Shown here in pieces: positions 2,352-21,078 of a stretch of 64,000 nt of DNA. A program made the position numbers and the translations under genes. Where the stretch lies: IMG/VR virus record IMGVR_UViG_3300019487_000319; one strand, given 5' to 3'. Under the pieces are notes generated by a model. The model had not been told where the DNA came from. It did not search any database and saw nothing but the letters and a program-made list of their open reading frames with translations. Numbering within the stretch: the first letter of the stretch is position 1; each line of letters begins with the position of its first letter. Source of the DNA: a virus.

Positions 2352-3062
2352 ATGAAATTAGCAATATGTCTATCCGGCCAACCAAGATTGTTTGATGTCG
2401 CCTACGAATCGTTAAAGCGATTTTACTTTCCAAAGTATGAGTGTGATGTATTCATTCACACATGGAAGGATTCGAACTATAATTCTCAGTTCTCAAATAA
2501 AGTCGTCTCGAATTCCGAAGACCTTCATGGAAATTATATCAAACTGTTCAAACCTAAAAAGGTTATGATAGAAGACCAGATTGTATTCGATAAGACCGGT
2601 ATCTCAGACCCTATATGGGGATGTAAGTTAAATTCGGTATTATCTATGTTTTACTCTGTTCAATTGTCCAACAAACTAAAATGTAAATTTGAACGAGAGA
2701 ATGATTTCAAATATGATTACGTAATGAGAATTAGAACGGATTTGTCATTACACCGACCAATTATTCCGGAAGAAATTCTTCCAAAACACATTGGTTTATT
2801 TAATTGGACTCAGGATTCCGAATATAATGAAAGAGGATTTTCGGATGTATTCTCTGTCGGACCATCAGATTTAATGGATGTATATTCTAATGCTTTTGAT
2901 TCCTTACATCACTATCTATATACGGATAATACATGGAATTTTCATGATTCCAGATTAAGAAACGAATATTTGTTACGAAGACATTTAGAAGTGAATCAAA
3001 TCTCCGTTCAACGATTTCATCATTTAGATGCACAAGACCCTAGTTTCGGAATAGTAAGATGA
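2352..3062 (+). CDS. hypothetical protein of the sugar operon (possible transferase)
   Basis: 236-aa ORF that starts 1 nt after the previous stop and overlaps the next ORF. N-terminus is MKLAICLSGQPR. No motif I can assign. Confidence 0.45.
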   Translation: MKLAICLSGQPRLFDVAYESLKRFYFPKYECDVFIHTWKDSNYNSQFSNKVVSNSEDLHGNYIKLFKPKKVMIEDQIVFDKTGISDPIWGCKLNSVLSMFYSVQLSNKLKCKFERENDFKYDYVMRIRTDLSLHRPIIPEEILPKHIGLFNWTQDSEYNERGFSDVFSVGPSDLMDVYSNAFDSLHHYLYTDNTWNFHDSRLRNEYLLRRHLEVNQISVQRFHHLDAQDPSFGIVR

Positions 3063-3979
3063 AAACAGACATTATAATTCACGTTTTGCCGTTTGAGATT
3101 GATAGATTTGAATATCAAATACTAGAACTAAAAAAGTGCAGTTCCTTATTGAATACTGACGACCAAATAATTATTGATGCAACATTGAATATCAATGATA
3201 TGTTAATCGATTGGAAAAATTCATCCATTCCTAAAGATTTCTTTATTGACCGATTTCTTCATCTCAAAAATCTATGTGATTACGCCGAATGTGTATTTGA
3301 TGTGGATGATAAGGAAAAATGTCTAGGTATAAACGCCAAGAGAAGAAACAGTATTAGGGAACGAGCAGACAAGTGTGACTCGTTTTTGTATCTGGATAAC
3401 GATATGGTCTATCCACATCATGCTTTAAGATATGCATTAGATGCAGCAAAATTGGTAAATACAGAATATTACCTTATCTCTCCACAATCCACCCAACTAT
3501 GGGATGATTCGTGGAAGGTATTGGTCAATGATTCATATTCGAATGTAGGATGTGATAAAATCACAGAACAGAATCCATTTGAAGTCTGTTCAAGAGTATA
3601 TGGAGATATTGAAGTTGTTCCTGTAGATGGATTCAAATTCGGTGGTGGATGGTTTAATTTATTTTCATCCAAACTATTATCTTATACCGATATTCCTGAT
3701 GAATTGGGAGGATATGGATTAGATGATATGTATGTTATGCAGGCGTGCCAAATTATGAAAAGCTTCGGTATGCCCGTTCAACAGTATATATTAAAAAATC
3801 TTGTGGTAACGCAAAATTACCGTTATGGTTATCACATGCAGGATGTGTATAAGAAGTTTATACCATTCATAAATAAGAAAGAAATGTTCATAACCAATGC
3901 AAAGAACCATTATCAAATGGTGATTCAAAGATTTTGGGAGAAATGTAAACATGATATCATTCATAATCCCTACTCGTAA
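3059..3979 (+). CDS. hypothetical protein of the sugar operon
   Basis: 306-aa ORF, translationally coupled on both sides. Has an LYLDNDM (DxD-like) segment but no confident family assignment. Confidence 0.45.
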   Translation: MKTDIIIHVLPFEIDRFEYQILELKKCSSLLNTDDQIIIDATLNINDMLIDWKNSSIPKDFFIDRFLHLKNLCDYAECVFDVDDKEKCLGINAKRRNSIRERADKCDSFLYLDNDMVYPHHALRYALDAAKLVNTEYYLISPQSTQLWDDSWKVLVNDSYSNVGCDKITEQNPFEVCSRVYGDIEVVPVDGFKFGGGWFNLFSSKLLSYTDIPDELGGYGLDDMYVMQACQIMKSFGMPVQQYILKNLVVTQNYRYGYHMQDVYKKFIPFINKKEMFITNAKNHYQMVIQRFWEKCKHDIIHNPYS

Positions 3980-5195
3980 TAATTTGCCTTACGTAAAGAC
4001 GGCAATTTCTAGCATTCGAAAATTTTATTTGGGTGCAGAAATCGTATTATTAGATGACAACTCTACCGATGGAACTGATAAATGGGTTAGCGAAACTTAC
4101 GACCCACATCTTACATATTATAAAAACGAAGGCAGACAAGTGGGACACACCGTTCTCTATGATATCGGTATTAAAATGTGTAAACATGAAATCTTCTCAA
4201 TATTTCATGCCGATATGATTTGTGGGCCTAATTATGTTGAAAATCTTCTTAAACATTTGAAGCCAGAAGGTGTAATTTCAGCAACAAGAATAGAACCACC
4301 GTTACATCCTCCCGGAAAAGAAAAAATTGTGATGGATTTCGGCATGTATCCCGGGGATTTTAAACAATCCGAGTTTATTACATTTTGTCGTGATTCCCAA
4401 GAGAATTCGTCTAATAAGGATGTAACGACAAGGGGTATATTCGCACCGTGGGCAATGTATAAAGAAGATTTCCTAAAAATCGGCGGGCATGATTCTTTGT
4501 TTTCTCCATTCCCATACGAAGATTCCGATATATTTCAACGTTTTATTTTAGCCGGATACAATATCAAACAAAGTCGTGATTCTTTTGTTTATCATTTTAC
4601 ATGTCGTGGACACAGATGGACAGAACAAGTTCAAAAAGATGATAACTTCTATAAGTTATGTTGTGCAAAAAACATGAATCACTTTATACGAAAGTGGGGA
4701 AGCTGGATAGAAAACGACGAGTTATGTTATCCAGTTATCAAACCATTCTACAACATCGGATTTGTGGTTACAAATTGCAATCTCCAATTACTCGGTGCAT
4801 TGGAACCTTGGTGTTCTACCATCTCATGTGATTGTCCAGAATGGGAATCTTACATCAAACAAGTTCAATCAGGAACTCCATTCGACTTAAAAAAGAGGGT
4901 GTTTTATAGGTCGGCTGAAATCAAGAATGACATAATTGTTCATTTTGATGCTTCGCAGTTGACACAAGAAAGATTCACATTCCTTACTCAATTACCAAAA
5001 ATACTTTTGGATAGTGGAGATTTGGGAGAAATGAAATTCGACATATTTACGTTCTTCATAAAGAGAATGCCAAGGTTGGAGTCATTGTTGATTCACAATA
5101 ACAATGAACTCTATCGTTCACGATTAATTGAAATTCCGGTGACCGACGAATATTACACCAACGAATTATTTAGAGTCTTTCAAAATACCAAGTAA
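3951..5195 (+). CDS. glycosyltransferase family 2 with an extra C-terminal domain
   Basis: MISFIIPTRNNLPYVKTAISSI...VLLDDNSTDGT...FHADMI is a classical GT2 N-terminus. About 180 further residues are of unknown function. Confidence 0.7.
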   Translation: MISFIIPTRNNLPYVKTAISSIRKFYLGAEIVLLDDNSTDGTDKWVSETYDPHLTYYKNEGRQVGHTVLYDIGIKMCKHEIFSIFHADMICGPNYVENLLKHLKPEGVISATRIEPPLHPPGKEKIVMDFGMYPGDFKQSEFITFCRDSQENSSNKDVTTRGIFAPWAMYKEDFLKIGGHDSLFSPFPYEDSDIFQRFILAGYNIKQSRDSFVYHFTCRGHRWTEQVQKDDNFYKLCCAKNMNHFIRKWGSWIENDELCYPVIKPFYNIGFVVTNCNLQLLGALEPWCSTISCDCPEWESYIKQVQSGTPFDLKKRVFYRSAEIKNDIIVHFDASQLTQERFTFLTQLPKILLDSGDLGEMKFDIFTFFIKRMPRLESLLIHNNNELYRSRLIEIPVTDEYYTNELFRVFQNTK

Positions 5196-6135
5196 CGGTG
5201 TCTTTTAAAGCTTTGTCGAATGGTGTGTGTTCAATCTTACCAAACGTGTGTTCAAAATCTGTGGTGTCGATTGCATATCTAAAATCGTGACCTTTTCTAT
5301 CTTCTACGAATTGTATTGATTTTTCTGGGTCTTTATTACACAATACACAGAGTTTTTTGACCAGGTCAAGATTTCGGATTTCATTATTTCCACCAATCAA
5401 ATACTGGCCTCCTGGCTGTCCACGTTTTACAACTTCCCAAACACACTTACAATGGTCATCGACGTAAATCCAATCTCGAATGTTTGTTCCTATTCCATAA
5501 ACAGGAACCGGTTCGTCGTTCTTCAGCTTCTTAATTGCTAGAGGAATAAGTTTTTCTGGATATTGTCTTGGACCAAAGTTATTTGAACAGTTGGTTATCA
5601 TGACAGGAAAATTGTGTGTTCTATAGAATGATTTACACAATAAATCCGATGACGCCTTCGAAGCGGCATACGGTGAATTTGGATGGTATGGAGAACGTTT
5701 TGTAAATGGCAAATCACCATCACCTAAATCACCAAACACTTCATCGGTGGAAATGTGAATGAATCTTACATCTGTTCTTCCTTTCCATAATTCCAAGAAA
5801 GTATTCAATAGAGTGAAGGTTCCGTTGATATTGGTTGTAATGAACGATTGGCCGGATTCTATCGACCTATCCACATGTGATTCAGCAGCAAAATGAACAA
5901 TTGTGTCGATGTTATATCGTTCGTATATTGTCTTCAGAAGAGATACGTCATTTATGTCTCCTTTGTAAAACTCATATCTATTACGAAGAACAAAATAGTC
6001 AGGTAAATTTTTGTGGCTTGCTGCGTAGGTGCATAAGTCAAGATTCACCACTAATTCCACTTCATCCTTTTTGGCCAAGAGATGAATAAAATTGCTACCG
6101 ATAAAACCAAGTCCCCCCGTGCAAAGTATTCTCAT
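5170..6135 (-). CDS. rmlB: dTDP-glucose 4,6-dehydratase
   Basis: MRILCTGGLGFIGSNF (Rossmann GxxGxxG), ISTDEVFG, YAASKASSD (YxxxK) and a DDHC block. Typical size of 321 aa. Confidence 0.9.
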   Translation of the reverse strand: MRILCTGGLGFIGSNFIHLLAKKDEVELVVNLDLCTYAASHKNLPDYFVLRNRYEFYKGDINDVSLLKTIYERYNIDTIVHFAAESHVDRSIESGQSFITTNINGTFTLLNTFLELWKGRTDVRFIHISTDEVFGDLGDGDLPFTKRSPYHPNSPYAASKASSDLLCKSFYRTHNFPVMITNCSNNFGPRQYPEKLIPLAIKKLKNDEPVPVYGIGTNIRDWIYVDDHCKCVWEVVKRGQPGGQYLIGGNNEIRNLDLVKKLCVLCNKDPEKSIQFVEDRKGHDFRYAIDTTDFEHTFGKIEHTPFDKALKDTVTWYFERL

Positions 6136-6335
6136 ATATTTTTAAATTCTTTTCTAAGTTGTTTAATAGATTTATTGAATTTTGCGTTGCACTTTTGTGA
6201 ACAAAATTTAGTTTTTATTATATTTTCTGTTCCTTCTTTTTTGAATAATTTTTCACAAAAATCACATCGAATCGAAAAAATAAACACATCAGTATTTATT
6301 TGACTCTTTCTTAGGAATATCTTATTCAGTATCAT
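6132..6335 (-). CDS. small CxxC...CxxC zinc-ribbon-like protein
   Basis: 67-aa ORF with CDFCEK...CSQKC. Its stop overlaps the rmlB start by 4 nt. Confidence 0.4.
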   Translation of the reverse strand: MILNKIFLRKSQINTDVFIFSIRCDFCEKLFKKEGTENIIKTKFCSQKCNAKFNKSIKQLRKEFKNI

Positions 6336-6415
6336 CCATCATACATATCATTTTAAATTCCGACCCACCAATAATAAAAATACGCTTGTATCATACAATT
6401 TCTATTTATTGCAAT

Positions 6416-6763
6416 ATGACACTGTTATTAATTTTATCCTGTTTTATCGCAATATTTTTACTTGCTTGGTTCAAATCCGATTTCATTATTGAATACGGAA
6501 AGTTACTGGGATTATCCAAGTTATTAAAACTTCGTGAATATAAAATGAAAAAATTGGAACATGCTAATCCCGTTCCAACATATACTCAATTCTTGAGAAT
6601 GACTTATGATAACTTCTTCGTTAAATTGATTACTTGTCCTATTTGCTTAGCCATTTGGTTATCAATCATCGTAGGAATATTCTATCATCTATCTACTTTT
6701 ATTCCTGTCATTTGTATAATGTCTTTGATATTTTACGGAATTTGTAGAAAACTATTAACTTAA
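6416..6763 (+). CDS. small integral membrane protein (DUF1360-like CPxC..W motif)
   Basis: The ORF track starts at a TTG (6386). The first ATG gives MTLLLILSCFIAIFLL. There are three hydrophobic segments and LITCPICLAIWLS. Confidence 0.45.
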   Translation: MTLLLILSCFIAIFLLAWFKSDFIIEYGKLLGLSKLLKLREYKMKKLEHANPVPTYTQFLRMTYDNFFVKLITCPICLAIWLSIIVGIFYHLSTFIPVICIMSLIFYGICRKLLT

Positions 6764-6764
6764 T

Positions 6765-7055
6765 ATGGATGTCCGTGGCGTTGGTGCGTTCTTTTATTTT
6801 TTAACCAGCAATGGATTAAATGGAGTGAGTCCAGATACGAACGCATTTATAGTATGTGTTGAAGAATATAGCCGTCTTTGTGCATGTGACAGTCCTGAAT
6901 TTAGAGAGTCTAAACAAAATAATTGTAGAGCACTCTACGAAACATGTATATCTCGGTCGGATGGATTAAAATCTATATTCTTATCCAAGACACAAGGAAA
7001 CAGGATTACTTTTTATTCCGACCACGGAAAAATACTAAAAACTTTTTCTCGTTAA
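6765..7055 (+). CDS. hypothetical protein (weak call)
   Basis: 96-aa ORF starting 2 nt after the previous stop. Cys-rich with no recognisable motif. It fills the convergent gap. Confidence 0.25.
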   Translation: MDVRGVGAFFYFLTSNGLNGVSPDTNAFIVCVEEYSRLCACDSPEFRESKQNNCRALYETCISRSDGLKSIFLSKTQGNRITFYSDHGKILKTFSR

Positions 7056-7321
7056 TTTCCGTCTTCTGGTTTAACATCAAATATATCCGATGGAAGTTCG
7101 GAACCATCAGGTAGATGCAATTTTCCATTTTTCAATTGTTCCTTGCCAGCTTCAAGTGTTCCTAAAACTACAGCCGCACCTGGGTCATGAGTCATATAAG
7201 ATAAGAAAGTAAGAAGGTCATAATCTACCTTTTCTCCATTATGAAACATAACTAATACTTCACAATCATCCATATCTTCGGGATAACGTGTTAATGCTTT
7301 TTTAAGATAACCTAATTTCAT
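7052..7321 (-). CDS. hypothetical protein
   Basis: 89-aa ORF that starts 2 nt after the upstream minus-strand gene ends. Confidence 0.5.
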   Translation of the reverse strand: MKLGYLKKALTRYPEDMDDCEVLVMFHNGEKVDYDLLTFLSYMTHDPGAAVVLGTLEAGKEQLKNGKLHLPDGSELPSDIFDVKPEDGN

Positions 7322-7322
7322 A

Positions 7323-7589
7323 TTATTCGTATTTCTTTGTTTCGCCTTGTTTGAAATTTTTGAACATGACTTTCCCTTCTGCGGCTAAAATCAACATTTC
7401 ATCCAGTTCTTGAATTAAATCATTCCTTTGTATATTCAAGATATTAGTTTTCCTCGTTGCATCAGCCACATCTTTGTCTGTCTTTGACTTATCTCTCTTC
7501 AATTCTTCGAGATGCCAAATTTTTAGGTTTACTATTCCGAGTTGGTCTATTAAATTCCCGAATGATACATTCATAGTTTTTCTTTCCAT
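7323..7589 (-). CDS. DUF4254-like protein
   Basis: LIDQLGIVNLKIWHLEEL ... NILNIQRNDLIQELDEML ... FKQGETKKY resembles, from memory, the C-terminal half of DUF4254. That family often sits next to glycosyltransferases. Confidence 0.45.
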   Translation of the reverse strand: MERKTMNVSFGNLIDQLGIVNLKIWHLEELKRDKSKTDKDVADATRKTNILNIQRNDLIQELDEMLILAAEGKVMFKNFKQGETKKYE

Positions 7590-7655
7590 ATACCGAAATA
7601 ATTTGTCTCGGAATATAATTTGTTATCTACTCTAAAAATCCCATATATTAATTTT

Positions 7656-8885
7656 TTAATCATTTCCAATGACTTTAAATTGTGGGCATGGAACAATAAA
7701 TTTACCACCAGCTTTTATGTAATCTGATTCTCTTTTTATAAATTCCGACAAAAAATGCCACGGGAGTATAAGTAAATAATCAGGTTTAGCTTTTCTCATT
7801 TCATCTTCCGAAAAAATTGGTATATTGGTTCCAACCGTCTTCAACCCCCACTTATACGGGCTTCTTTCGGCCATACCATCAATCAGTGTATGATCCAAAC
7901 CAAAATATTGTAACAACGTGTTTCCCTTGGTAGATGCACCATATCCCCACACCGTCTTTCCGTTAACTTTTTCAGTTTTAACAAAATCAACAACTTGTTT
8001 CTTTAGATTTTCTATTTTGTAATAGAAACTTTCCCAAACAACTAATTGTTTATCACCGACATGTCCATTGATCTTTTCATGAAACAACAGAGACTCCATT
8101 CTGAAAAGACAAACGTCTCTGTATGGTTGAGTTGAAAAGTTTTCTGTTTTAAACGTATCCTTTACAACGTATATTCTGAACGACCCACCATTTACATCGT
8201 TCAATTGACAATCTATAACTCTAAATCCATTTGACTCAAGAAGGTTTTTCATATTAGTCAATGTATAGTAGTAAATGTGTTCGTGACAAATGTTATCAAC
8301 TGCCACTTGATGAATCATAAGTGGTGTGTAACTCAATTGCAAAACAAACAGACCATCATCATCCATAACGTTATATACATCTTGTAAAAATGGATTTGGA
8401 TTATCCAAATCATAAAACATTGCTATACACGTCACTACTTTTGCTTTAAGATGGCCGAATTTTTGACTTCTATATGCTTTTTCACTAAAGTAATCTTGAA
8501 CAATAACATTTGCGTGGGTTTCGGATTCTTTCTTAAATGTATCATCGGCGGGGTCTATTCCGATTCGGATTATATTATCATCCAAAAAGCTTAAAAGAGT
8601 CCCATCGTTACAAGCAATATCCAACCATACATCATTTTCTTTTAGATTAACTAAACCACAAATCGAATGAACTATAGACTTTAGTTCATTTTTCATGGTG
8701 GCATTAATTCCGGAACGATACCAGTATCTTCCATACATAGTATCCAATGGTGCAGGCTTTTCTAGTCTGACCGCCCCTAAATTATTATCATAAACAAGTT
8801 TTATTTCTTGTTTAGGATGTGCTGTTTGACCTTCTTTAATAAAGTCAGACACATGTAATTCTCCGAGTGTAAATAATTCTTTCAT
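7656..8885 (-). CDS. NDP-hexose C-methyltransferase (TylC3-like)
   Basis: SAM-binding WLDIACNDGTLLSF plus the C-terminal C-methyltransferase block VWGYGASTKGNTLLQYFGL...PDYLLILPWHF...GGKFIVPCPQ. Confidence 0.75.
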   Translation of the reverse strand: MKELFTLGELHVSDFIKEGQTAHPKQEIKLVYDNNLGAVRLEKPAPLDTMYGRYWYRSGINATMKNELKSIVHSICGLVNLKENDVWLDIACNDGTLLSFLDDNIIRIGIDPADDTFKKESETHANVIVQDYFSEKAYRSQKFGHLKAKVVTCIAMFYDLDNPNPFLQDVYNVMDDDGLFVLQLSYTPLMIHQVAVDNICHEHIYYYTLTNMKNLLESNGFRVIDCQLNDVNGGSFRIYVVKDTFKTENFSTQPYRDVCLFRMESLLFHEKINGHVGDKQLVVWESFYYKIENLKKQVVDFVKTEKVNGKTVWGYGASTKGNTLLQYFGLDHTLIDGMAERSPYKWGLKTVGTNIPIFSEDEMRKAKPDYLLILPWHFLSEFIKRESDYIKAGGKFIVPCPQFKVIGND

Positions 8886-8886
8886 A

Positions 8887-9738
8887 TTACCAAATCCAAT
8901 TCTTTAAACATTCTTCCAACGATTCATGAACTTCTTTCATTTCTAATCCAACACTTTTTAATTTATCGGTATTCAACACCGTATTTGACCTTGGTGCCCT
9001 CACCATCGAATTAAATTGTTCCAAACTTTCGAAATATTGAAATTCCTTTTCTACTTTTAGCGTTTTCTTTATCATTTCTACAACTTCAGTTGTTGTGATT
9101 TCGCCTTTATTGGTTACATTATATATTCCAAACGGAACCTTGTTTTGTAGGGAATCCAAACACACCTTTACGTATTCTTTTTTATTTGATAAGGAATTCT
9201 TAACATTTAAAAGTGTGTTGTATCTTAACAATTTAGAAATGTAGTTTCTTTCATTGTTTCTTTCTTCAAATGGAATTCTCAATCTCCAAATGTATTTATC
9301 AGGCAACTCACTCAACATTTCTTCTCCTAATGCTTTCGTTCCACTGTAAAAACTACATGGTTGATTTTTAAAGGAAAAATTCGGTTCATCTTCCTCGGTA
9401 AATCCTCCATCTTTATATCCATTGTATATACAGCCCGATGAAACATGTCCCAACACTATGTTTTTTCTTGCACATAAAGTGGCTAATATTCTAGGAAATA
9501 CTACATTACCTGATAATGTTTCTGATTTAGCATCCTCACACACATCTACATTTGGTTTTCCGGTGTATCCAGCACAATTGATAATAGTGTCTATTTTAAA
9601 TGTAGATATAAATCTATCAATCTCATCGATATTTGCATCTATTGCAGACATTGGATATGACCCTATTCCACGACCTGCTAATTGTCGTTGAAATTCATGT
9701 CCTATATATCCACTAGACCCAAATAATAAAACTTTCAT
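8887..9738 (-). CDS. NAD(P)-dependent sugar-nucleotide reductase (RmlD-like dTDP-4-dehydro-6-deoxyhexose reductase)
   Basis: MKVLLFGSSGYIGHEF (Rossmann), SSGCIY and FYSGTKALGE (YxxxK). It is 283 aa and sits between the C-methyltransferase and rmlA. Confidence 0.7.
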   Translation of the reverse strand: MKVLLFGSSGYIGHEFQRQLAGRGIGSYPMSAIDANIDEIDRFISTFKIDTIINCAGYTGKPNVDVCEDAKSETLSGNVVFPRILATLCARKNIVLGHVSSGCIYNGYKDGGFTEEDEPNFSFKNQPCSFYSGTKALGEEMLSELPDKYIWRLRIPFEERNNERNYISKLLRYNTLLNVKNSLSNKKEYVKVCLDSLQNKVPFGIYNVTNKGEITTTEVVEMIKKTLKVEKEFQYFESLEQFNSMVRAPRSNTVLNTDKLKSVGLEMKEVHESLEECLKNWIW

Positions 9739-10598
9739 ACCAATCTCTCTAAGTAACTTTTATAATCACTTTTTGGTAGGCTTCCTACCGATTCCTTAAA
9801 TTGTTCTTTAGAAATGAAACCATTTACTAAACATGATTCTTCATAACATCCAATCATTATTCCCTGTCTTTCTTGGACAGATTGAATGTATGCTGATGCT
9901 TGAAATAATGTGGCTGGGGTACCGGCATCCAACCATGCTGTTCCTCTTTCCATAATTTTGGCTGTTAGTGTTCCTTCTTGCATATACATTTTTAACAAAT
10001 CCACTATTTCTAACTCCCCTCGTGTGGATGGCCTTAATGTATTAGCAAAATTAGAAGCCATTCCATCAAAATAATACAGACCCGGTATAGCATATTTACT
10101 CTTTGGTTGTATTGGTTTTTCTTCTAAAGAAATAACGTTACCCATTTTATCGAACTCAACTACACCATAAGCTCTTGGATTATTAACTTCGTATCCAAAC
10201 ACCGACGCTCCTTTTGGTGGAGTTATAACATATTTGTATTTATCAGGAGGTTGAATATTTCCATGAAATATGTTATCTCCGAGAATCAAACAGGAGGGTT
10301 TTTCTTCCAAGTAATCCTCAGCAATAATTAATGCCTGAGCTAATCCTTTTGGTTGGTCTTGAATCGCATATTGTATGCACAATCCCCATTTGTTTCCGTT
10401 TCCTAATAAGTTTTTGTAAAAATCAATGTATTGAGGGCTTGTTATCAATAATATCTCTTTTATTCCGTTATTGATTAAAGTGGTCAACGAATAATAGACC
10501 ATCGGTTTATCATATACAGGCAATAGTTGTTTATTAACCATTGTTGTCAATGGATATAATCGAGTTCCTGACCCACCTGATAAGATTATGCCTTTCAT
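9735..10598 (-). CDS. rmlA: glucose-1-phosphate thymidylyltransferase
   Basis: MKGIILSGGSGTRLYPLT...KQLLPVYDKPMVYY...PKGLAQA...LGDNIF...EKP..PKS.YA..GLYF. Canonical RmlA blocks at 287 aa. Confidence 0.9.
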   Translation of the reverse strand: MKGIILSGGSGTRLYPLTTMVNKQLLPVYDKPMVYYSLTTLINNGIKEILLITSPQYIDFYKNLLGNGNKWGLCIQYAIQDQPKGLAQALIIAEDYLEEKPSCLILGDNIFHGNIQPPDKYKYVITPPKGASVFGYEVNNPRAYGVVEFDKMGNVISLEEKPIQPKSKYAIPGLYYFDGMASNFANTLRPSTRGELEIVDLLKMYMQEGTLTAKIMERGTAWLDAGTPATLFQASAYIQSVQERQGIMIGCYEESCLVNGFISKEQFKESVGSLPKSDYKSYLERLV

Positions 10599-10850
10599 TT
10601 ATTTACTTTGATGATTTTGATTTAAATAATTAACAATTTCATTTACCAATTGATTACATCCTTCTTCGGATTCTAATAAAGCCAGATCGCCGTCGGTGAG
10701 GCCAAATACAAACACCTTTCCGAGAGTCCACACAGCAAGTTCAACATCTGTATCCTTACATGTAATAGAATGACTTCCAGTAAATGATTCCCCCATTGCT
10801 TTCAGGGGAAACGTTTCATTAAGTAGTTTGAATAGATGTCTGGTTTTCAT
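10599..10850 (-). CDS. hypothetical protein
   Basis: 83-aa ORF immediately upstream of rmlA on the same strand. Confidence 0.5.
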   Translation of the reverse strand: MKTRHLFKLLNETFPLKAMGESFTGSHSITCKDTDVELAVWTLGKVFVFGLTDGDLALLESEEGCNQLVNEIVNYLNQNHQSK

Positions 10851-11589
10851 TTTTGTTTAATCTTTCTTTCCAATTCCACACAAGAGGTTTTACAAACATT
10901 ATCTTTTGTGGTGATTTAGTTATTATGTATTCTTTTCCTTCGTCGTATCCATACTTCTCAAGAGCAGCTTTTGGGTCTTTTCTTGCTAATTCTCCCCTAG
11001 CTCCTGTTTCCTTTTTCCATAAACCCAATGGGCCTTTTCTAATAGAATTTCCTGATGTCTTTCCTACTTCTATCCAATTAGATGCACGGTATATCGCACC
11101 GTTTCTTAATTTCTCTCCATTATATTGTTCTACTCGTTCCGGTTGAACATAGGTTTCTATCATCAGTAACGGTTGATTATACTTCTCTTTCCATCTTTTT
11201 GCACCTTGTATGGATAATTGTTTTAAAACCATACTTCCGGTATTTTTTATGGTTATATTCTTTTGAATGAAACAACAACGAGAATTGTTTGCTAACATTC
11301 CTAAATTCTTGATTCTAGTTTCTTTATCCCATCCGATATAGTCATCTCGACAGGATATAGCAATAGTTGCAGAAGATAAGCCGATGGCTCCTATGTGATT
11401 ACCGGATTGAGTTTCGTAGATTAACCATCGTATGTTTCTGGTAGGGGAATCAGTATATTTTACGTAAGAATGGTATTTATCAATAGTTTCTCTGAATAAT
11501 TTGTTCTGTTCCGGAGAGGAACATTCTACTAAAAATACCGGCGTTTTTACAGTATCAGAGTAATCAAATATGGACAAAGAAAAAGACAT
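10819..11589 (-). CDS. DUF4338-family protein (Druantia DruA-type domain)
   Basis: Ordered blocks CRDDYIGWDKETR, LANNSRCCF, KNTGSMVL, LLMIETYVQPE and NGAIYRASNWIEVGKTSG match the DUF4338 consensus as I recall it (RD.%IGW / nNsRFL / N.aS / ETFVD / G.cYrAaNW..vG.T.G). Confidence 0.65.
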   Translation of the reverse strand: MSFSLSIFDYSDTVKTPVFLVECSSPEQNKLFRETIDKYHSYVKYTDSPTRNIRWLIYETQSGNHIGAIGLSSATIAISCRDDYIGWDKETRIKNLGMLANNSRCCFIQKNITIKNTGSMVLKQLSIQGAKRWKEKYNQPLLMIETYVQPERVEQYNGEKLRNGAIYRASNWIEVGKTSGNSIRKGPLGLWKKETGARGELARKDPKAALEKYGYDEGKEYIITKSPQKIMFVKPLVWNWKERLNKNENQTSIQTT

Positions 11590-11645
11590 ACATATAACCG
11601 TTTCTACGTTAATATGTATGTCCGAAAAACTAAAAACGTTTTATT

Positions 11646-12326
11646 TTAAACCGTAACTATTCCGCTATTTACTCTTAACATTGGGCATTTTGATAAACAA
11701 AGACGGGTGGTATCTATCATATATTGGTCTTTAGATATAGCTGCCAATTCAATAGAAGGGTCGCTCATACGAACATCTTCCCATTCTAATCTATAATCTG
11801 ATTTATATCTTACCAATGGGTCGTTCTTTGCTTCTTCTGCATTAGGGGCGTCATCAAATACTTGTTCTCCCATAAAACCTCTATGGAATTTAGAAAGGTG
11901 GAGAACCCAACCCTCCCAATTTTTATGAAGCCAATCTGCTTCATTTGGAAATCTTACATCCGAAACGAAAAATACCTTTTGAGATTTGGGGGAATCGTTC
12001 TGATGTTTTTTATATTCGGCCCTTAACACATCATCAACTTTCTTAATCCATATATCCGGGTCAACATTTTCTCTCATTCCACATCCTATCCACACCAAAC
12101 CCGGTCGAATGACTTTTTTCTCGTCAGTATTATCGGTAAAAGCCGAGATACCAAACAATTGTTGACAAACGGGGTCTGCTAATTTTTTTAATTCATCGGC
12201 AAAAGCAAGTTTTCTAACTTCATAACCTTCTTCCTGTAAAATTGATGATGCAATTTTACAAAAAGTATCCTTACCACATCTAGCATATCCAGAAATCCCT
12301 ATAACTGTAAAATTTTTGTTACTCAT
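11646..12326 (-). CDS. deoxynucleoside monophosphate kinase (T4 gp1-like P-loop kinase)
   Basis: FTVIGISGYARCGKDT (compare T4 gp1 LSGVKRSGKDT), a later FFVSDVRFPNE block, and similar length and architecture. Confidence 0.6.
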   Translation of the reverse strand: MSNKNFTVIGISGYARCGKDTFCKIASSILQEEGYEVRKLAFADELKKLADPVCQQLFGISAFTDNTDEKKVIRPGLVWIGCGMRENVDPDIWIKKVDDVLRAEYKKHQNDSPKSQKVFFVSDVRFPNEADWLHKNWEGWVLHLSKFHRGFMGEQVFDDAPNAEEAKNDPLVRYKSDYRLEWEDVRMSDPSIELAAISKDQYMIDTTRLCLSKCPMLRVNSGIVTV

Positions 12327-12338
12327 AATAATTTCCTT

Positions 12339-12866
12339 TCAACTTTCTCCATTTAATAAAACATTTTCTATTTCTTTGTCGTTTAATCCATATCCTTGGC
12401 AAATATTAACCAATTCTTCCATTCCGCCTTCAAGATTTATTAACATAAATACATATTCATTCGCACGATCGACAGAAATATCAAATTTTTTAGAAACTAA
12501 ATTCAATAATTCTTTGTTAAACTTGTCTTTTTTCGATTTTACCCACGGATAAAATTTTCTATCAGGTTGAACCAATGTAATTAACAGTGTATAGAATTGT
12601 TCCGATGGAATAATATCGAAATATTTGAATAACCATGCCATATCTTCGATGTAATTTGGATTCATGGATATTGCTCTCAGAAGCATGAAGTGAGAAAAAT
12701 TCTTCTTATCGAATTCTGATAAATTTTTATAATAGTTCGGGTCTTGGATTTCCTTAATTTGTTTGACGTGTTCAAACAAACTCACGGGCTTAATCTTTTC
12801 CATCGACTGGTCTTCCGAATCTTGACAATCTTTCGATTTTTTGGGCTCTTTGAGCTTTCTTTTCAT
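12339..12866 (-). CDS. possible clamp-loader small subunit (T4 gp62-like); otherwise hypothetical
   Basis: FSHFMLLRAISMNP...YTLLITLVQPDRKFYPWVKSK...FDISVDRANEYVFML resembles the gp62 pattern as recalled. Alternative start at Met22 (12803). No gp44-like partner is in the window. Confidence 0.35.
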   Translation of the reverse strand: MKRKLKEPKKSKDCQDSEDQSMEKIKPVSLFEHVKQIKEIQDPNYYKNLSEFDKKNFSHFMLLRAISMNPNYIEDMAWLFKYFDIIPSEQFYTLLITLVQPDRKFYPWVKSKKDKFNKELLNLVSKKFDISVDRANEYVFMLINLEGGMEELVNICQGYGLNDKEIENVLLNGES

Positions 12867-13059
12867 ACAATGTTAATTTTGATAACAATCCTGCTTGTGT
12901 AGATTGTAATGTATTTTGGTTTTTTGATAGTATAACGACATTCTCTTCCGATTTAGTTACTCTATTTTTTAACCAACGATATCTTTTTTCACAAAAAACT
13001 ATATATCCTGATACCAAAGAAACCACCAACAGTATAATTAGATATGTTATTATAGACAT
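12790..13059 (-). CDS. N-terminally membrane-anchored coiled-coil protein
   Basis: MSIITYLIILLVVSLVSGYIVF followed by a charged helical region. Its 3' end overlaps the next ORF's upstream start. Confidence 0.4.
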   Translation of the reverse strand: MSIITYLIILLVVSLVSGYIVFCEKRYRWLKNRVTKSEENVVILSKNQNTLQSTQAGLLSKLTLYEKKAQRAQKIERLSRFGRPVDGKD

Positions 13060-13103
13060 GATTATGATTATAATAGTTTATCGACAAACAATCTCAATAT
13101 TTT

Positions 13104-14312
13104 TTAACGTCCCACATCGTTAAAATATATCTGTCTAGCTTTTTCATAGGACATTCCACTCATATCTCCATAAAAGAGTTTCGTAGAGTTGAGCGGACCT
13201 GATGATTTTAATTTCTTATATCGTTCTATGGCTTTTGGTCGCCACCAATCCAATATGGCTTTTGTATCATACTGAAACAGTGGTTTCAAAATCAAATCCT
13301 TTTCTTCGATTTTATTTGATAGAAATTCTTTTGTGTTTTCGTAAAAACAAGAATAATATACACCCCGCTCAAATCCATGAACATAGTTAGATGATTTGAT
13401 TTGAGCAGAATCGAATATCATATTTATGACTCTTAATTTAGCTCCTGTAACAGGACCAGAAACATCTTCCTTCTGTGTCATCTTTTTCTCATATTCAGAT
13501 GATTTGTTTATCTTAATCCAATCATGCCACTTCTTATAAATTTTTTCTTCAGGTTGAATGGCAATCTTGCCGGCCGACGTTCCGCATTTATGCCACCATT
13601 TTAAACTATTATACATGGAGAATGAACCATAAAGGCTTGTCGTCGTCATTCCTACTAAAACAGAATCATACGTCCGTTTCCAAGCATCTCTGACTACTTT
13701 GGAAACTACCATTGCAGCGGATAACTTTCCTCCTAAGAATGGATAACCAAATGGTTGAGTAGAAACAATCGTTGTTCCAATTGCTGAATTAACTAATTTT
13801 CCTTCCTTGAGTTTATTATCCATTGACCATCCAATATAATTGTCTCTATCTCCAATGGAAATTACATCACTGGCAATTGAACATATTCCTAAGATTCTTG
13901 GATTATCAAGATTTCCATCATGGATCCAAAACTTCATAAATCTACCAGGTGCCTGATTAAATTCGGCAGAACTACAAAAATAACGAAGTGTGGTCCACAT
14001 TTTGTCATCTTCTTCGTTATCTATCAATTGAATTGTTGGAACCATGTTTTCAATTTCTTTTATGGTTCGTTCTTCATCCATGATATCTTCTGGTGCCCAT
14101 ATTTTTGCCTTGGCTACGCCAGCACGATTAAGGTGAGAATTCATAGCCTTTCTATCAGATATTTCTTCCCATTTTTTTCGAAAAGTAAATTCCTCAACAC
14201 TCAATGATTTAAGATAATCCATATTTTCTATCAACTTCCTTGTTTCTACATTAAGGTTAAATGAAGCTTGGGATGGTGCTGACTCAAAAAATATATCCGA
14301 TGTATCTGCCAT
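13104..14312 (-). CDS. DUF4338-family protein, long form (402 aa)
   Basis: GRFMKFWIHD...ILGICSIASDVISIGDRDNYIGWS...NSAIGTTIV...GGKLSAAMV...VLVGMTTTSLYGSFSMYNSLKWWHKCGTSAGK. Same block order as 10819-11589, but highly diverged. Confidence 0.6.
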   Translation of the reverse strand: MADTSDIFFESAPSQASFNLNVETRKLIENMDYLKSLSVEEFTFRKKWEEISDRKAMNSHLNRAGVAKAKIWAPEDIMDEERTIKEIENMVPTIQLIDNEEDDKMWTTLRYFCSSAEFNQAPGRFMKFWIHDGNLDNPRILGICSIASDVISIGDRDNYIGWSMDNKLKEGKLVNSAIGTTIVSTQPFGYPFLGGKLSAAMVVSKVVRDAWKRTYDSVLVGMTTTSLYGSFSMYNSLKWWHKCGTSAGKIAIQPEEKIYKKWHDWIKINKSSEYEKKMTQKEDVSGPVTGAKLRVINMIFDSAQIKSSNYVHGFERGVYYSCFYENTKEFLSNKIEEKDLILKPLFQYDTKAILDWWRPKAIERYKKLKSSGPLNSTKLFYGDMSGMSYEKARQIYFNDVGR

Positions 14313-14317
14313 AAGGA

Positions 14318-14346
14318 ATTTTATCTCTATAAAAAGAGAAAGTCAA
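14318..14346 (-). promoter_or_regulatory. sigma70-like promoter TTGACT-N17-TAAAAT ending 5 nt before the ATG of 13104-14312 (would give a leaderless mRNA)
   Basis: The minus strand reads TTGACTttctctttttatagagaTAAAATtccttATG. The -35 is at 14346-14341 and the -10 at 14323-14318. Confidence 0.45.
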
Positions 14347-15378: not shown

Positions 15379-17649
15379 TCATACCTTCTTTAAAAAAAGT
15401 CCGTTCATCGTTTTTGCAATCTGCCCAACCTGCGTAACATCAATCATACTAGCGTCTTTTCCATACATTGAACGGAATTGTTTTTCCGTTGTTTGGGTCG
15501 CCATTCCTAAAAATCCACCGAAAGCATTTACACTTTTATAATCCGATTCTATAAAATAACTCAGTATTTTAATACCATGTGACCGCATAATATTAACCTG
15601 ACGTTTGGTGTGTTTCACAGCTTCTTCACCACCATAAGAAAATCCTTTTCCACCGCCGCGGTCATAAAAACAATAACACGGTTCACCGTCTGAAATGTTT
15701 ACGAAGTAATGGTCTTCTCCATTGGATCGTTTATTTATTACACAATCCGTCATGATTGCTTCAAAGGCCAATCCTTCAGGAGTTGCACCACCAGCTTTCA
15801 AAAATGGAAAAATCTGGCGTATCTTACTTGGTTTATCAACTTCTGAATCATATATGATAACAATATATGGAAGACTTGCCTTATCCATATCATGTGTTGT
15901 ACGAAGAGAAACCGACACATGTAAATTTTGAATCATCGAACATGCTTGACACAATGCTGCCAACAGTGTCATCGTAGGCAACCATTTTGTACTACAATCC
16001 ATCGAACCACTGGCATCCACCGAAATATGAAGTTTGGCTGTATTAAACTGGTCCATCTGAATCTTATAAAAGAGATTTTCTACTCCTGCACCAAACTCCG
16101 CTATAATTCTTTTTTCTAATTTACCGGAAGAGCGTCTAATATATTTAATGATGTTGGTTTCATTTCTGATTTGAAGTTTTCTTCCCAATCTTTTACCCAT
16201 AGCAATACCCTTCATTATTGCTTCCAAATTTTCTTTATTAGGTTCAATTCCACCTAATGCTATTCCGGGAGATTCTTCATGTGTAGAAAGAGGAAAGATT
16301 TCCTTTCCAGAAAACAATAACGATTTTGTCAGATTTTTTACAACGATACAATCGACTTTTCTTATGACTCCTTCAGAATTTTCTGGACTAAAATGAGCAT
16401 GAGAAATATGAATTCCTGATTGTTCAACGATTTCTAAAATCTTAGCTCTTTCGGCCGTCAAGGTTTCCTTTACCGAATCAAAATCATTCATTAACATTTC
16501 TTTCGTCTGTTCAAAATGTTTTTGAATTTTATCTCGTTGTGATGGGGTGAATTCACTTAAATCACCACGAGGGTCATCTTCCGTAGTCTTACCATCTTCA
16601 ATTTTTTCGGCTTGAGTAGGCATGCCTCCCAATACGTCCTCAATTGATTCAGATTCCGACTCTGCCAACTTTTCTTTTTCAGATGATGGTTCACCGGTTT
16701 TTTCTTCTTTATTTTCGGAATGTTCTCCGGATTTGCTTATTTGTGTCGCGGACGGATCATCTTTATTCCCATCAGGTTCATTAGATGGTTCATTAGAATT
16801 ACCACTCAACACATTTTTTATCTGCTTAATTGTAGAATTGGCTCCACCACCGTTATTGGCTTCTTTTTTCTTTTTATCGATTGCATCTAATATCATTTCG
16901 ACAATTTTGAATGAGAGAGTCATTCTATCCGATGTAGTCTTTTCTCTTAAAATGGTTGATATATCGAATAAAGCATTTATCTTTCTTAATTCCGGCAAGG
17001 CATCTAAATCAGTCGCGGGATTGGTCAAATATATGATTCTATATTCGTAGGATTCCAAATTATTGAGACGATATCCCTTCGATTTAAGCGTTGCACTTAT
17101 TGCTTTGGAATTCCAAAGCTTATCATACAATGCTTTATAATATCCTCGGTATCCGGGACATGTTTTGAAGGCATAGGCATCAATATATCTGTCTTCGACA
17201 ACATTGAACATCATTTTACAAAAGTGAGCTACTTCTTCTTTTGTGACTCGCTTTTCTTTGCCCTTCTTATACAGTTCCGATGGAATCTTATTCCAAATAG
17301 ACCTAAATATATTAAAATCCGTTTTAACGATGTGCATTGATTCGTGTAATGCTAATCCGACACACCAATCAAAGTCGGATTTTTTTCTAACGGAAGCTGA
17401 CAAAAAAACAGTTTTTCCATCGGTTGCTCCGGTACTTCCGGCAGGTAAATATTTAACAGGTATGGATGGGTTTGTAGCAATGGATACAAAGTTAGAAATG
17501 ACTTTTCGATACGATGCCAATAAAATTAAATCCATTGTAAATAACTTACCCTCAGTTGTGGTTTCTTTATCATGATTTATATAATCATCGATAGACGTGC
17601 CGTCCAACCAGAAATCGGAATAACACGTATCTTTATCTACAACATCCAT
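15379..17649 (-). CDS. CobT-like VWA-domain protein (N-terminal HExxH region, acidic linker, C-terminal von Willebrand A domain)
   Basis: LALHESMHI (HExxH, aa 102-106), a long Glu/Ser/Lys-rich linker, and the MIDAS-type HISVDASGSMD motif. It lies directly upstream of an AAA+ partner. Confidence 0.7.
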   Translation of the reverse strand: MDVVDKDTCYSDFWLDGTSIDDYINHDKETTTEGKLFTMDLILLASYRKVISNFVSIATNPSIPVKYLPAGSTGATDGKTVFLSASVRKKSDFDWCVGLALHESMHIVKTDFNIFRSIWNKIPSELYKKGKEKRVTKEEVAHFCKMMFNVVEDRYIDAYAFKTCPGYRGYYKALYDKLWNSKAISATLKSKGYRLNNLESYEYRIIYLTNPATDLDALPELRKINALFDISTILREKTTSDRMTLSFKIVEMILDAIDKKKKEANNGGGANSTIKQIKNVLSGNSNEPSNEPDGNKDDPSATQISKSGEHSENKEEKTGEPSSEKEKLAESESESIEDVLGGMPTQAEKIEDGKTTEDDPRGDLSEFTPSQRDKIQKHFEQTKEMLMNDFDSVKETLTAERAKILEIVEQSGIHISHAHFSPENSEGVIRKVDCIVVKNLTKSLLFSGKEIFPLSTHEESPGIALGGIEPNKENLEAIMKGIAMGKRLGRKLQIRNETNIIKYIRRSSGKLEKRIIAEFGAGVENLFYKIQMDQFNTAKLHISVDASGSMDCSTKWLPTMTLLAALCQACSMIQNLHVSVSLRTTHDMDKASLPYIVIIYDSEVDKPSKIRQIFPFLKAGGATPEGLAFEAIMTDCVINKRSNGEDHYFVNISDGEPCYCFYDRGGGKGFSYGGEEAVKHTKRQVNIMRSHGIKILSYFIESDYKSVNAFGGFLGMATQTTEKQFRSMYGKDASMIDVTQVGQIAKTMNGLFLKKV

Positions 17650-17652
17650 AAT

Positions 17653-18627
17653 TTAGAATTTATGGGTTTTTAACCCTCCCTTTTTTCCCTTGATAGGATT
17701 AGGTGCGGCAGAAGCATTGGTATCAATATATTTCTGAACCAATTGTTTGATATAAAGTCTTTCGGATTCCGTTCCGCCATCTTTATCAAACATTGGATAG
17801 ATGGATAATTCTGCTAACTCTTTAAGAGAAAATCCGTCAATAACCATCTGAGCCATTTCAATAACAATACCGGTGGGAATGAATCGGGAAATAGGAGCGT
17901 CGTCTAATTTAGCCTGTTTCTTTGTATCATGTGAAATATTACAAATATCATTGAAGTAGTCCTTGTTTTCTTCAAAATCATTTTCAAATAAAATTTTCAA
18001 TAACTTCATCTCTCCGTCAAAATCCAACGGTTCCATTTCAACGATGACCGGAAATCGACGAGACGTGGCTTCATCGATGACTTTCGTTGCGGTATATTGT
18101 AATCCTATGTTTGTAGTAGAAACAAACGTAATACTGGTAGGAATCTTGATGATTGAGGATTCTACTGATTCATCCAACCGTAAATATCTTTGTGTAGAAT
18201 CCAAGACCGGCATCAATATATTCCAAGCATCATGATGTCCACGAGAAAGTTCATCTAGTAGAATTACTGCATTCTCAGTTTGTATTGCTCTAACAAATTC
18301 CGATGGATTAAATATCGTTCCTTGCTCTTTTTTGAATGTGGTATTTCCAATAAGTGTTGCCCGGGCATCTTGTGTAGAACCAAGATTGAAATAGAAGAAG
18401 GGTCTATTCAATGCTTTTGCGACGGATTGAGCGGCTTTGGTTTTTCCGCATCTTGTCGGTCCTACTATTAAAACGTTTCGACCTCGTAACACTGCCCATA
18501 CCAAACCCTTCCATTGTGTTTCGTCTATAATCAAATCCTTTGGAATTAAAGACTTGGAATCAGTAAGCATTTGCGTAACATCTACGTTTGACATATCGTT
18601 GAGAATGGAGTTTTTCATTACCTCCAT
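17653..18627 (-). CDS. CobS/MoxR-type AAA+ ATPase
   Basis: Walker A is VLIVGPTRCGKTKAA and Walker B is VILLDELSR. At 324 aa it is adjacent to the VWA protein, as in CobS/CobT and MoxR/VWA pairs. Confidence 0.75.
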   Translation of the reverse strand: MEVMKNSILNDMSNVDVTQMLTDSKSLIPKDLIIDETQWKGLVWAVLRGRNVLIVGPTRCGKTKAAQSVAKALNRPFFYFNLGSTQDARATLIGNTTFKKEQGTIFNPSEFVRAIQTENAVILLDELSRGHHDAWNILMPVLDSTQRYLRLDESVESSIIKIPTSITFVSTTNIGLQYTATKVIDEATSRRFPVIVEMEPLDFDGEMKLLKILFENDFEENKDYFNDICNISHDTKKQAKLDDAPISRFIPTGIVIEMAQMVIDGFSLKELAELSIYPMFDKDGGTESERLYIKQLVQKYIDTNASAAPNPIKGKKGGLKTHKF

Positions 18628-20304: not shown

Positions 20305-21078
20305 TCAACTAAAAAACGGATTTTCGGTCTTATTATCGACTTTGATTTCCTCTATTTGTTCCTTATAGATAGTATCTTTTGGATAGGGTAAAAATGGGTG
20401 TTTTAGATTGGCTAATATTTTCTTCTTTTCGACCTTATTTCCCAATAAATACACATATCGATGTTTGGTGGATTCTTTTTTCCTCCAGAACGTTTTACCG
20501 ATGGTCTTTTTCAAATGTTCTACGTTATGAGAACCATAAGTGGAAAAGGCGGTTCTTGAATGCATCCATTTATACGGTGGCCCGATTTCTGAAATAGAAT
20601 AATTAGGCATTAAAGCTAATGAAGAATTCCCTTGATAGTAAAATCCTGAAGCCTGATAGATGGTTCCTCTGTGACCTTGTTCATTATCAGCATAACTTAT
20701 TACGGCTTTAACGTTAGGAAGATGCTTTGTCAACATCGATAAAGTCTTTGATATACAATAACTTTCTATATTTTTGCCGTATCCATCATAAATGACTAAT
20801 CGGGTTAATTCCGTAACTTGTTCCAAGGTTATGAGTGGAGATATAGATTCGGCTGCACTTCTTCCAACCGGGCCGCCGTAGATGACTGTTCCGATTAATT
20901 TTTCCTCATTGCCTTCAATGAATTGGGAGGGAGTTTTTGTATTAATGAAGATACCAAAAGCCACATCACATAGGGTCCATTTGTGACTATAATGATTTTT
21001 TTCGACAAATGATTTACCTATATCTTTAGGAATTACCCGTATTGACACGAGTGATGTATCGACATAACCTTCTTCCAT
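20305..21078 (-). CDS. Mom-like acyltransferase-fold protein (candidate DNA-base-modifying enzyme)
   Basis: FVEKNHYSHKW, AFGIF, IGTVIYGGPVGR, ELTRLVI..GYGKNIESY and VISYADNEQGHRGTIYQASGFYYQG. This block order is that of the phage Mu Mom family as I recall it. Confidence 0.6.
   Translation of the reverse strand: MEEGYVDTSLVSIRVIPKDIGKSFVEKNHYSHKWTLCDVAFGIFINTKTPSQFIEGNEEKLIGTVIYGGPVGRSAAESISPLITLEQVTELTRLVIYDGYGKNIESYCISKTLSMLTKHLPNVKAVISYADNEQGHRGTIYQASGFYYQGNSSLALMPNYSISEIGPPYKWMHSRTAFSTYGSHNVEHLKKTIGKTFWRKKESTKHRYVYLLGNKVEKKKILANLKHPFLPYPKDTIYKEQIEEIKVDNKTENPFFS

Follow-up and report, generated by a model that had tools for sequence, protein, structure and literature searches.

A short and a long DUF4338 gene in a large uncultured phage and their remote relationship to the DNA-modifying Mom family

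The stretch of viral DNA analyzed here, hereafter the window, comprises 64,000 nucleotides of IMG/VR record IMGVR_UViG_3300019487_000319 and carries two genes of the DUF4338 (DruA) family, both on the minus strand and at coordinates that we verified: open reading frame (ORF) 1 at 10819-11589, encoding 256 amino acids (aa), and ORF2 at 13104-14312, encoding 402 aa. We find that the two proteins fall into different branches of DUF4338, that ORF1 is closest in predicted fold to the DNA-modifying enzyme Mom of phage Mu, and that genes of the ORF1 type are linked to mom genes in related viral genomes. Our preferred interpretation, which builds on the domains, the fold and the homology to Mom, on conserved residues and on the linkage of the genes, is that ORF1 and ORF2 are anciently diverged members of one GNAT clade that takes in both DUF4338 and Mom, with ORF1 an active transferase and ORF2 a remodelled relative, in a DNA-hypermodification module; we hold this view tentatively, rating it slightly short of an even chance.

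Both proteins had been assigned to DUF4338 in an earlier note on this DNA, and both score well above the 27-bit gathering cutoff of the Pfam model PF14236 (DruA, formerly DUF4338), ORF1 with 88.7 bits (E 5.1e-25) and ORF2 with 70.2 bits (E 2.2e-19). The ordered motif blocks quoted there are present in both translations, reading RDDYIGW, NNSR, ETYV and NGAIYRASNWIEVGKTSG in ORF1 and RDNYIGW, NSAI, TTTS and SFSMYNSLKWWHKCGTSAG in ORF2. The two sequences align directly by BLASTP at 24% identity (E 3e-7), and alignments of their respective families match by hhalign with 96.9% probability (E 1.6e-10), comparisons that mark them as homologs. For either ORF, a chance reading frame or a decaying pseudogene was rejected on account of its many relatives (at E<=1e-3, 267 for ORF1 and, in metagenomes, 1184 for ORF2) and the many residues invariant among aligned close relatives. 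Searching the PDB by sequence with the profiles of the two families returned nothing relevant.

As reported in 2026, Mom belongs to the GNATs and transfers glycine from Gly-tRNA(Gly) onto the N6 position of adenine in double-stranded DNA, making it a tRNA-dependent DNA aminoacyl-transferase whose product is N6-carbamoylmethyl-adenine (PMC13219725). Mutagenesis found R111, S124 and R151 essential, D149A greatly reduced in activity, and H58, Y59, W48, Y159 and W181 important, while N121 is only invariant across the family; a helix-turn-helix-like insertion at residues of about 175-209, which includes W181, is likewise essential and predicted to bind DNA (PMC13219725). Following the earlier note's proposal to compare predicted structures with Mom and GNAT folds, we searched the AlphaFold2 model of ORF1 (pLDDT 84.6) against the PDB with Foldseek and found Mu Mom as the best match (8bv8_B, E 1e-6, template-modeling score 0.55 normalized to the target); all 31 matches at E<=1e-3 are Mom or GNATs. 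In the comparison with viral models a Mom protein ranks second (E 5e-9), and 'endonuclease-like' fusion proteins come next (E ~1e-6). To its GNAT core ORF1 adds a helical insertion, with helices 188-192, 197-204 and 206-213 lying between strands 173-185 (beta6) and 221-235 (beta7), the place where Mom has its essential insertion. ORF1 is also basic (isoelectric point 9.5), as is Mom, and its residues 162-247 match the Mom-like family phrog_1384 (E 3.1e-5). Across the ORF1 family, 21 of 49 members match phrog_1384 through their C-terminal part and 40 of 49 match phrog_19197, the family of ORF2 (E 3.3e-26), through their N-terminal part. The ORF2 model (pLDDT 79.9) has low confidence in the expected beta4 region and a helical insertion, aa 256-302, longer than that of ORF1. 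On the ORF1 model the fold is that of a GNAT, with Mu Mom the closest of the solved structures. The Aravind group has termed DUF4338 a GNAT domain (PMC10853773), which is the sole structural statement in the literature we searched; no biochemistry for DUF4338 or DruA was found there.

Profile comparison extends this likeness to the level of sequence families. A broad DUF4338 profile, built from 133 diverse sequences out of 1487 relatives at E<=1e-3 among 1.84 billion cluster representatives, aligns with a Mom-family alignment that includes Mu Mom over 127 columns (hhalign 96.0%, E 4.6e-9), in a register that fits predicted secondary structure. An ungapped profile-offset scan supports the pairing of H40 with Mom H58 and of Y167 with Y159 and leaves the beta4/alpha3 region undecided, where the broad-profile hhalign alignment settled the register; the register given there by MAFFT of the mixed families contradicts predicted secondary structure and was discarded. 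BLASTP of ORF1 or ORF2 against the window's own Mom gave no match. These alignments indicate that DUF4338 and the Mom family are homologous, if remotely. The earlier note had drawn the connection from a C-terminal motif, and the relationship of the families stands on diverse profiles and structure, while the short motif itself is not significant by hidden Markov model (HMM).

Mapped to Mu Mom through the hhalign profile alignment, not by structural superposition, H58, Y59, R111, N121, S124, Y159 and W181 correspond to H40, Y42, R104, N116, S119, Y167 and W191 of ORF1, and D149 to Q149. Within the ORF1 family, the residues at the H58, Y59, R111, Y159 and W181 positions are found in 100% of sequences, Asn and Ser at the N121 and S124 positions in 96% each, and Gln at the D149 position in 84%. 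Bacterial DUF4338 proteins carry the same residues as Mom at H58 (100%), Y59 (94%), R111 (97%), N121 (77%), S124 (93%) and Y159 (98%), with Glu (39%) or Asp (32%) at D149, and Trp in 47% at the W181 position, a column that 32 sequences reach. The ORF2 family, in contrast, has His (85%) or Ser (15%) at the H58 position and Thr (90%) or Ser (10%) at Y59, and is uniform (100% each) for Gly at R111 (G179), Phe at N121 (F192), Gly at S124 (G195), Leu at D149 (L227), Tyr at Y159 (Y234) and Tyr at W181 (Y259). Close relatives of ORF2 have 75% mean column identity. ORF2-type members down to 25% identity, checked in pelagiphages Mosig and HTVC008M, cyanophages S-PRM1 and S-SSM7 and sequences derived from metagenome-assembled genomes (MAGs), have Gly or Ala at the R111 position and Gly (one Thr) at the S124 position, and the family-specific motifs TQPxG[YF]xxxGGKL and TTSLYG are common to all of them.

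Judged by these residues and by the matches to a Druantia DruA model given below, PF14236 spans at least two branches: a Mom-like, putatively catalytic one made up of ORF1 and most of the bacterial DUF4338 representatives sampled, and a remodelled, DruA-proper one made up of ORF2, the genes of marine T4-like phages and, by inference, Druantia DruA. The earlier picture of two very diverged DUF4338 copies is thus right as to the family and needs correcting in that the copies belong to different branches and are not equivalent. By analogy with Mom, ORF1 is probably an active Mom-like transferase. Several of the bacterial DUF4338 proteins (e.g. P0367, P0261 and P0346) are fused or adjacent to ISAs1-family transposases, and P0261 has an N-terminal piece resembling a segment of ribonucleotide reductase (RNR).

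Genes of the ORF1 type, hereafter the short type, occur on 347 IMG/VR contigs, and their surroundings were compared in 62 non-redundant viral loci, 20 of which have at least 9 kilobases (kb) on both sides. Within 10 kb of the short-type gene, an ORF2-type (long-type) gene is found in 17 of these 20 full-flank loci, a mom gene in 13 and both in 13; Mom directly adjoins the short-type gene in 7 loci. Loci like that of the window run Mom, p262, CobS, p756, p144, long DruA, gp62, deoxynucleoside monophosphate (dNMP) kinase, short DruA, and in rearranged genomes the short DruA, Mom and long DruA are directly adjacent, with the short-type gene accompanying Mom and RNR, not sugar genes. The three genes abut and are co-directional in one locus (L057), forming an operon-like cassette, while L068 and L070 carry a short DruA, two Moms and a long DruA (contiguous in L068), and L061 carries two short DruA genes and three Moms. 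That the linkage survives rearrangement argues for shared function or shared regulation, though part of it is inherited synteny. In the window the two DUF4338 genes with a true Mom 6 kb away form a linked module, suggestive of a DNA-modifying kit of several enzymes.

Tandem arrays of 2-3 Mom paralogs, with mutual identities of only 28-48%, are present in L054, L061 and L067-L070, and L054 has two short DUF4338 genes, as does L061. Every tandem copy keeps H58, Y59, R111, N121, S124, D149 and Y159, a pattern that suggests diversified donor or target specificity.

The window's own Mom gene (20305-21078, minus strand, 257 aa), which the earlier note had called Mom-like, is a true member of the family (PF25680, E 4.6e-43; phrog_1384, E 1.6e-46) and keeps H58, Y59, R111, N121, S124, D149 and Y159. 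The same likeness had been claimed for a gene at 46783-48339, and it holds for one domain of that gene. The 528-aa ORF (46753-48339, plus strand) is no Mom by Pfam: it has DUF7487 and zf-FCS domains and falls into the 'homing endonuclease' family phrog_3339 (E 4.7e-127). Its C-terminal domain (47797-48162, plus strand), taken as a 21-sequence alignment of the ORF and 20 viral homologs, aligns with the Mom family over 122 columns (hhalign 95.2%, E 2.6e-8), with equivalents of H58, R111, D149 and Y159 in place. The suggestion that one acyltransferase-fold superfamily is used four times in the window is thereby supported, through Foldseek for ORF1 and through hhalign for DUF4338 and this fourth gene. 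The presence of a Mom-type domain may mean that this 'homing endonuclease' family is mis-annotated, or that it couples DNA modification to mobility. The gene is the sole plus-strand gene within a long minus-strand block, and the PHROG labels of phrog_3339 and phrog_559 are homing/HNH endonuclease.

On the Druantia side, ORF2 residues 117-366 are collinear with positions 117-375 of the 407-position PADLOC DruA model PDLC00002 (E 5.9e-18), and the ORF2-type protein P0130 covers positions 88-369 of 407 (E 2e-21). ORF1 matches this model only partially, over aa 26-96 and ending at the RDxYIGW block, and bacterial NNSR-type DUF4338 proteins give weak, partial matches. What real Druantia DruA has at the R111 and S124 positions is deduced only from the full-length, collinear agreement of ORF2-type proteins with the PADLOC model. 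No matching model for DruA exists in NCBIfam, and a plasmid search for a genuine DruA gave only a generic DUF4338 protein with an ISAs1 transposase. A bacterial protein named 'Druantia anti-phage system protein DruA' by NCBI (P0346, locus L087) was rejected as a genuine DruA since no Druantia operon surrounds its gene; the name, apparently assigned from the domain, can mislead. The accession of Escherichia coli DruA is WP_000548583.1 (PMC13203963). The window locus is not a Druantia system, as PADLOC models for the partners druB, druC, druD and DruE match none of the neighbours or the 9 largest other window ORFs.

Long-type genes are very rare in cellular genomes: in 185,579 species genomes only 10 such loci were found, all on MAG contigs. 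They occur in cultured Kyanoviridae, and tblastn identities to ORF2 in cultured marine T4-like phages are 25-32%. The DruA-like proteins of phrog_19197 include S-PRM1 gp050, S-SSM7 SSSM7_173, HTVC008M gp106 and gp122, and Mosig_00022. Six Synechococcus phages, S-PRM1 among them, have been reported to encode DruA-like structures (Phold preprint, 10.1101/2025.08.05.668817), and S-PRM1 is one of ORF2's tblastn matches. In S-PRM1 (L098) and S-SSM7 (L099) the long DUF4338 gene lies between the clamp-loader genes gp44 and gp62, an adjacency of long DruA and gp62 that is also kept in viral loci related to the window. The ORF1 type gave no tblastn match (E<=1e-3) in cultured phages, including those with ORF2-type genes, no Synechococcus or Pelagibacter phage was among the Mom matches listed, and a whole-genome HMM scan of HTVC008M found neither a short-type DUF4338 gene nor Mom.

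Some of these relatives have further features of their own. S-SSM7 has a tRNA-Gly gene 3.2 kb downstream of its long DUF4338 gene, and in HTVC008M (L126-L128) the long type is present as two paralogs, gp106 and gp122, with gp122 directly after the DNA polymerase gene. Four MAG contigs with scattered taxonomic labels (L090-L093; L092 and L093 are labelled Thermoplasmata) carry tandem pairs of long-type DUF4338 genes and also a 742-aa long-type form with an N-terminal extension; they are probably viral contigs binned into MAGs.

Turning to the surroundings in the window, the two genes described earlier as lying between ORF1 and ORF2 were both recovered on the minus strand: a gp1-like dNMP kinase at 11646-12326 (phrog_139, E 1.2e-24; Pfam DNMK, E 8.7e-4, under Pfam's cutoff) and, downstream of ORF2, a gp62-like clamp-loader small subunit at 12339-12866 (phrog_225, E 1.8e-11; score for Pfam Phage_clamp_A under its cutoff). 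Upstream of ORF2, at 15379-18627 on the minus strand, are genes for a protein of 756 aa that matches nothing in Pfam, PHROG or PADLOC and for a CobS-like AAA_5 ATPase (E 6.6e-16). This pair adjoins the long DUF4338 gene in window-type viral loci (e.g. L001 and L002), and in the pelagiphages Mosig and HTVC008M the DUF4338 gene is flanked by a corresponding pair annotated as 'peptidase' and CobS. Immediately upstream of ORF2 is a sigma-70-like promoter candidate, TTGACT-17-TAAAAT (14318-14346, minus strand), which matches 10 of 12 consensus positions at an intergenic site and is suggestive only; taken together, the promoter sites are no more numerous than chance predicts (33 sites vs 41 expected from shuffled sequence), and only the positions of the best four are suggestive. 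By prediction, ORF2 appears to be expressed with replication genes.

The window belongs to the genome of a large, uncultured, marine-type myovirus, with genes for a tail sheath, a gp32-like single-stranded DNA-binding protein, RecA, a DnaB-type helicase, a 5'-3' exonuclease and a class II RNR with an intein. The neighbourhood of ORF1 and ORF2 is one of DNA replication and nucleotide metabolism, not a defence island, as the earlier note had it. A protein identical to ORF2 is on record in a 340,916-bp contig, the exact ORF1 protein has no record in the contig index, and megablast of the region against cultured phages gave no match. The class II (B12-dependent) RNR gene (21834-25133, minus strand) is interrupted by an intein with HNH and NUMOD3 endonuclease motifs. 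A sugar-nucleotide and glycan cluster at 167-10598 abuts ORF1 on its downstream side and encodes RmlA, an RmlD-like reductase, a sugar C-methyltransferase, a GDP-mannose-dehydratase-like enzyme, two GT2 and one GT11 glycosyltransferases, and methyltransferases. The window contains no tRNA genes, and for a putative, polymerase-sized ORF at 34077-36683 neither Pfam nor the cultured phages gave a match.

Within the interpretation that we prefer, the catalytic activity, the donor, DNA as the target and an anti-restriction role are the parts that we infer. If it works as Mu Mom does, ORF1 would transfer an activated acyl group, most plausibly an aminoacyl group donated by a charged tRNA, to a base of double-stranded phage DNA, with the helical insertion between beta6 and beta7 holding the DNA and R104 and S119 acting as R111 and S124 do in Mom. 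Because Gln occupies the D149 position in ORF1, the donor, target or product may differ from those that give Mom's N6-carbamoylmethyl-adenine. In the ORF2 branch, the fixation of Gly or Ala and of Gly (one Thr) in place of the Mom-type Arg and Ser implies other cofactor chemistry or a non-catalytic partner, and ORF2 could accordingly be an enzyme with a different cofactor or a nucleic-acid-binding protein without activity of its own; from its sequence, the GGK loop at the start of helix alpha3 resembles the coenzyme A (CoA)-binding glycine-rich loop of GNATs. Together, ORF1, ORF2 and Mom would form a module that hypermodifies phage DNA against host restriction.

Several observations weigh against this interpretation. 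The substrate specificity of a GNAT cannot be read from its fold, as has been stated for Mom itself (PMC13219725), and ORF1 has Gln in place of the D149 acid, the loss of which in D149A strongly lowers Mom activity. All PDB matches of the ORF2 model are weak (E>=0.08), nearly all of them to acetyltransferases. Pfam's Mom model PF25680 matches neither ORF1 nor ORF2 at E<=1, a purpose-built Mom HMM gives about 1 bit, and a narrow profile-profile comparison (effective number of sequences about 2) yields only a 20-residue match at 2% probability, so that the homology of DUF4338 to Mom must be a distant one. The short type stands alone, with neither Mom nor the long type, in 3 of the 20 full-flank loci, inherited synteny within one phage lineage could partly account for the linkage, and cultured Kyanoviridae have the long type without a recognizable Mom.

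Three other explanations were weighed. One or both proteins might acylate tRNA, aminoacyl-tRNA or protein for host takeover or regulation, with DNA not the substrate; a target protein could belong to the replisome or to the host. In favour of this, GNAT folds are promiscuous, tRNA binding is known for Mom, and there is a precedent in GNAT toxins such as TacT and AtaT, which act on aminoacyl-tRNA (PMC13219725), while the weak fold matches of ORF2 are mainly to protein acetyltransferases (MYST, p300) and its GGK loop is CoA-like. We nevertheless think this unlikely, since the solved structure nearest to ORF1 is the DNA-modifying Mom, ORF1 shares the insertion and the W181 equivalent that are tied to DNA binding (PMC13219725), short-type genes are linked to Mom genes, and bacterial DUF4338 occurs in DNA-related contexts, with transposases and as N-terminal fusions to DndF (PMC10853773). 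A different role, as an anti-defence mimic, would make ORF2 a non-enzymatic decoy or subunit poison of host Druantia type I or another DUF4338-based system. Its collinearity with the curated DruA model is shared across ORF2-type proteins (E 6e-18 to 2e-21), NNSR-type proteins matching only in part; the Mom-type catalytic Arg and Ser are replaced in ORF2, and a possible early promoter lies at the gene. However, a fixed place in the replisome cluster, between gp44 and gp62 or beside gp62, in very divergent phages is atypical of accessory anti-defence genes, and ORF2 is highly conserved among its close relatives, with family-specific invariant motifs. Moreover, the ten cellular loci, all on MAG contigs, speak for an old viral lineage and not for recent capture, and the type is found in phages of SAR11 and marine Synechococcus; mimicry consequently strikes us as distinctly improbable.

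The position of ORF1 next to the RmlA, RmlD-like, C-methyltransferase and glycosyltransferase genes raises the further idea that it works with this sugar-nucleotide cluster and N-acylates a sugar. In relatives, RmlA/RmlD or DegT aminotransferase genes follow the short-type gene, and in L057 a GT4/GT1-like gene (two weak Pfam matches, under curated cutoffs) comes directly after the long-type gene. Yet where genomes are rearranged, Mom and RNR stay with the short-type gene and the sugar genes do not, the conserved residues and the insertion of ORF1 are those of Mom, no aminotransferase was found among the scanned sugar genes of the window, and DUF4338 is not a known sugar acyltransferase family, all of which makes a glycan role very improbable.

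The distinction between the branches matters beyond this phage, as DUF4338/DruA, besides being the domain by which Druantia type I is recognized, is encoded by a gene conserved in abundant marine T4-like phages. Most DUF4338 members sampled, ORF1 included, keep the residues important in Mom, which turns the relationship into a concrete hypothesis of aminoacyl-tRNA-dependent DNA modification. Two functionally different branches would sit under one Pfam name, and the absence of the Mom residues from the DruA-like branch is relevant to models of Druantia type I. The linked multi-paralog cassettes, for their part, suggest unexplored DNA hypermodification chemistry in uncultured large phages. While phage DruA-like genes themselves were already known from the Phold preprint, the literature we searched contained no earlier report linking DUF4338 to Mom with catalytic residues conserved, of a split of DUF4338 into Mom-like and remodelled DruA-type branches, or of the recurrent linkage of short DUF4338, Mom and long DUF4338 genes.

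A broader reading goes further than our preferred interpretation and, with all its parts taken jointly, we regard it as doubtful. In it, DUF4338 as a whole would be a sister family of Mom, whose members use charged tRNA for aminoacyl or acyl transfer to nucleic acids; the cassettes of some phage lineages, with as many as six such genes (1-3 Moms, 1-2 short DUF4338 and 1 long DruA-type), would write several DNA hypermodifications or one multi-step modification; and the remodelled DruA-proper branch, comprising Druantia DruA and ORF2, would read such a mark or write another. If that were true, defence by Druantia type I would be linked to modification, and its DruA may stem from viruses.

Set beside known systems, ORF1 is most like Mu Mom (PF25680, 8bv8), with which it has in common the GNAT fold, aligned equivalents of H58, Y59, R111, N121, S124, Y159 and W181, the helical insertion between beta6 and beta7, a basic character and a phage-encoded gene, which moreover is linked to true mom genes. 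The DUF4338 proteins differ from Mom in an extra RDxYIGW helical element before beta4, which Mom does not have; ORF1 has Gln at the D149 position, and ORF2 lacks equivalents of R111, S124, N121, D149 and Y59. With the bacterial NNSR-type DUF4338 proteins, known as DndF fusions and in association with ISAs1, ORF1 shares HY, RDxYIGW, NNSRF, NLxS, ETFV and GxxYxAxNW, but it is minimal, stand-alone and viral and has a Mom-like C-terminal extension. ORF2 shares the PF14236 domain with DruA of Druantia type I and is collinear with the curated model, whereas its gene belongs to a phage replication module with neither druB-E nor a defence island, and genes of its type are almost absent from cellular genomes. 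Its nearest counterparts are the DruA-like proteins of marine T4-like phages, which share its motifs and Gly substitutions as well as neighbours, namely gp62 in cyanophages and CobS with the 'peptidase' in pelagiphages; what sets the lineage of the window apart from them is that it combines short DUF4338, long DUF4338 and Mom.

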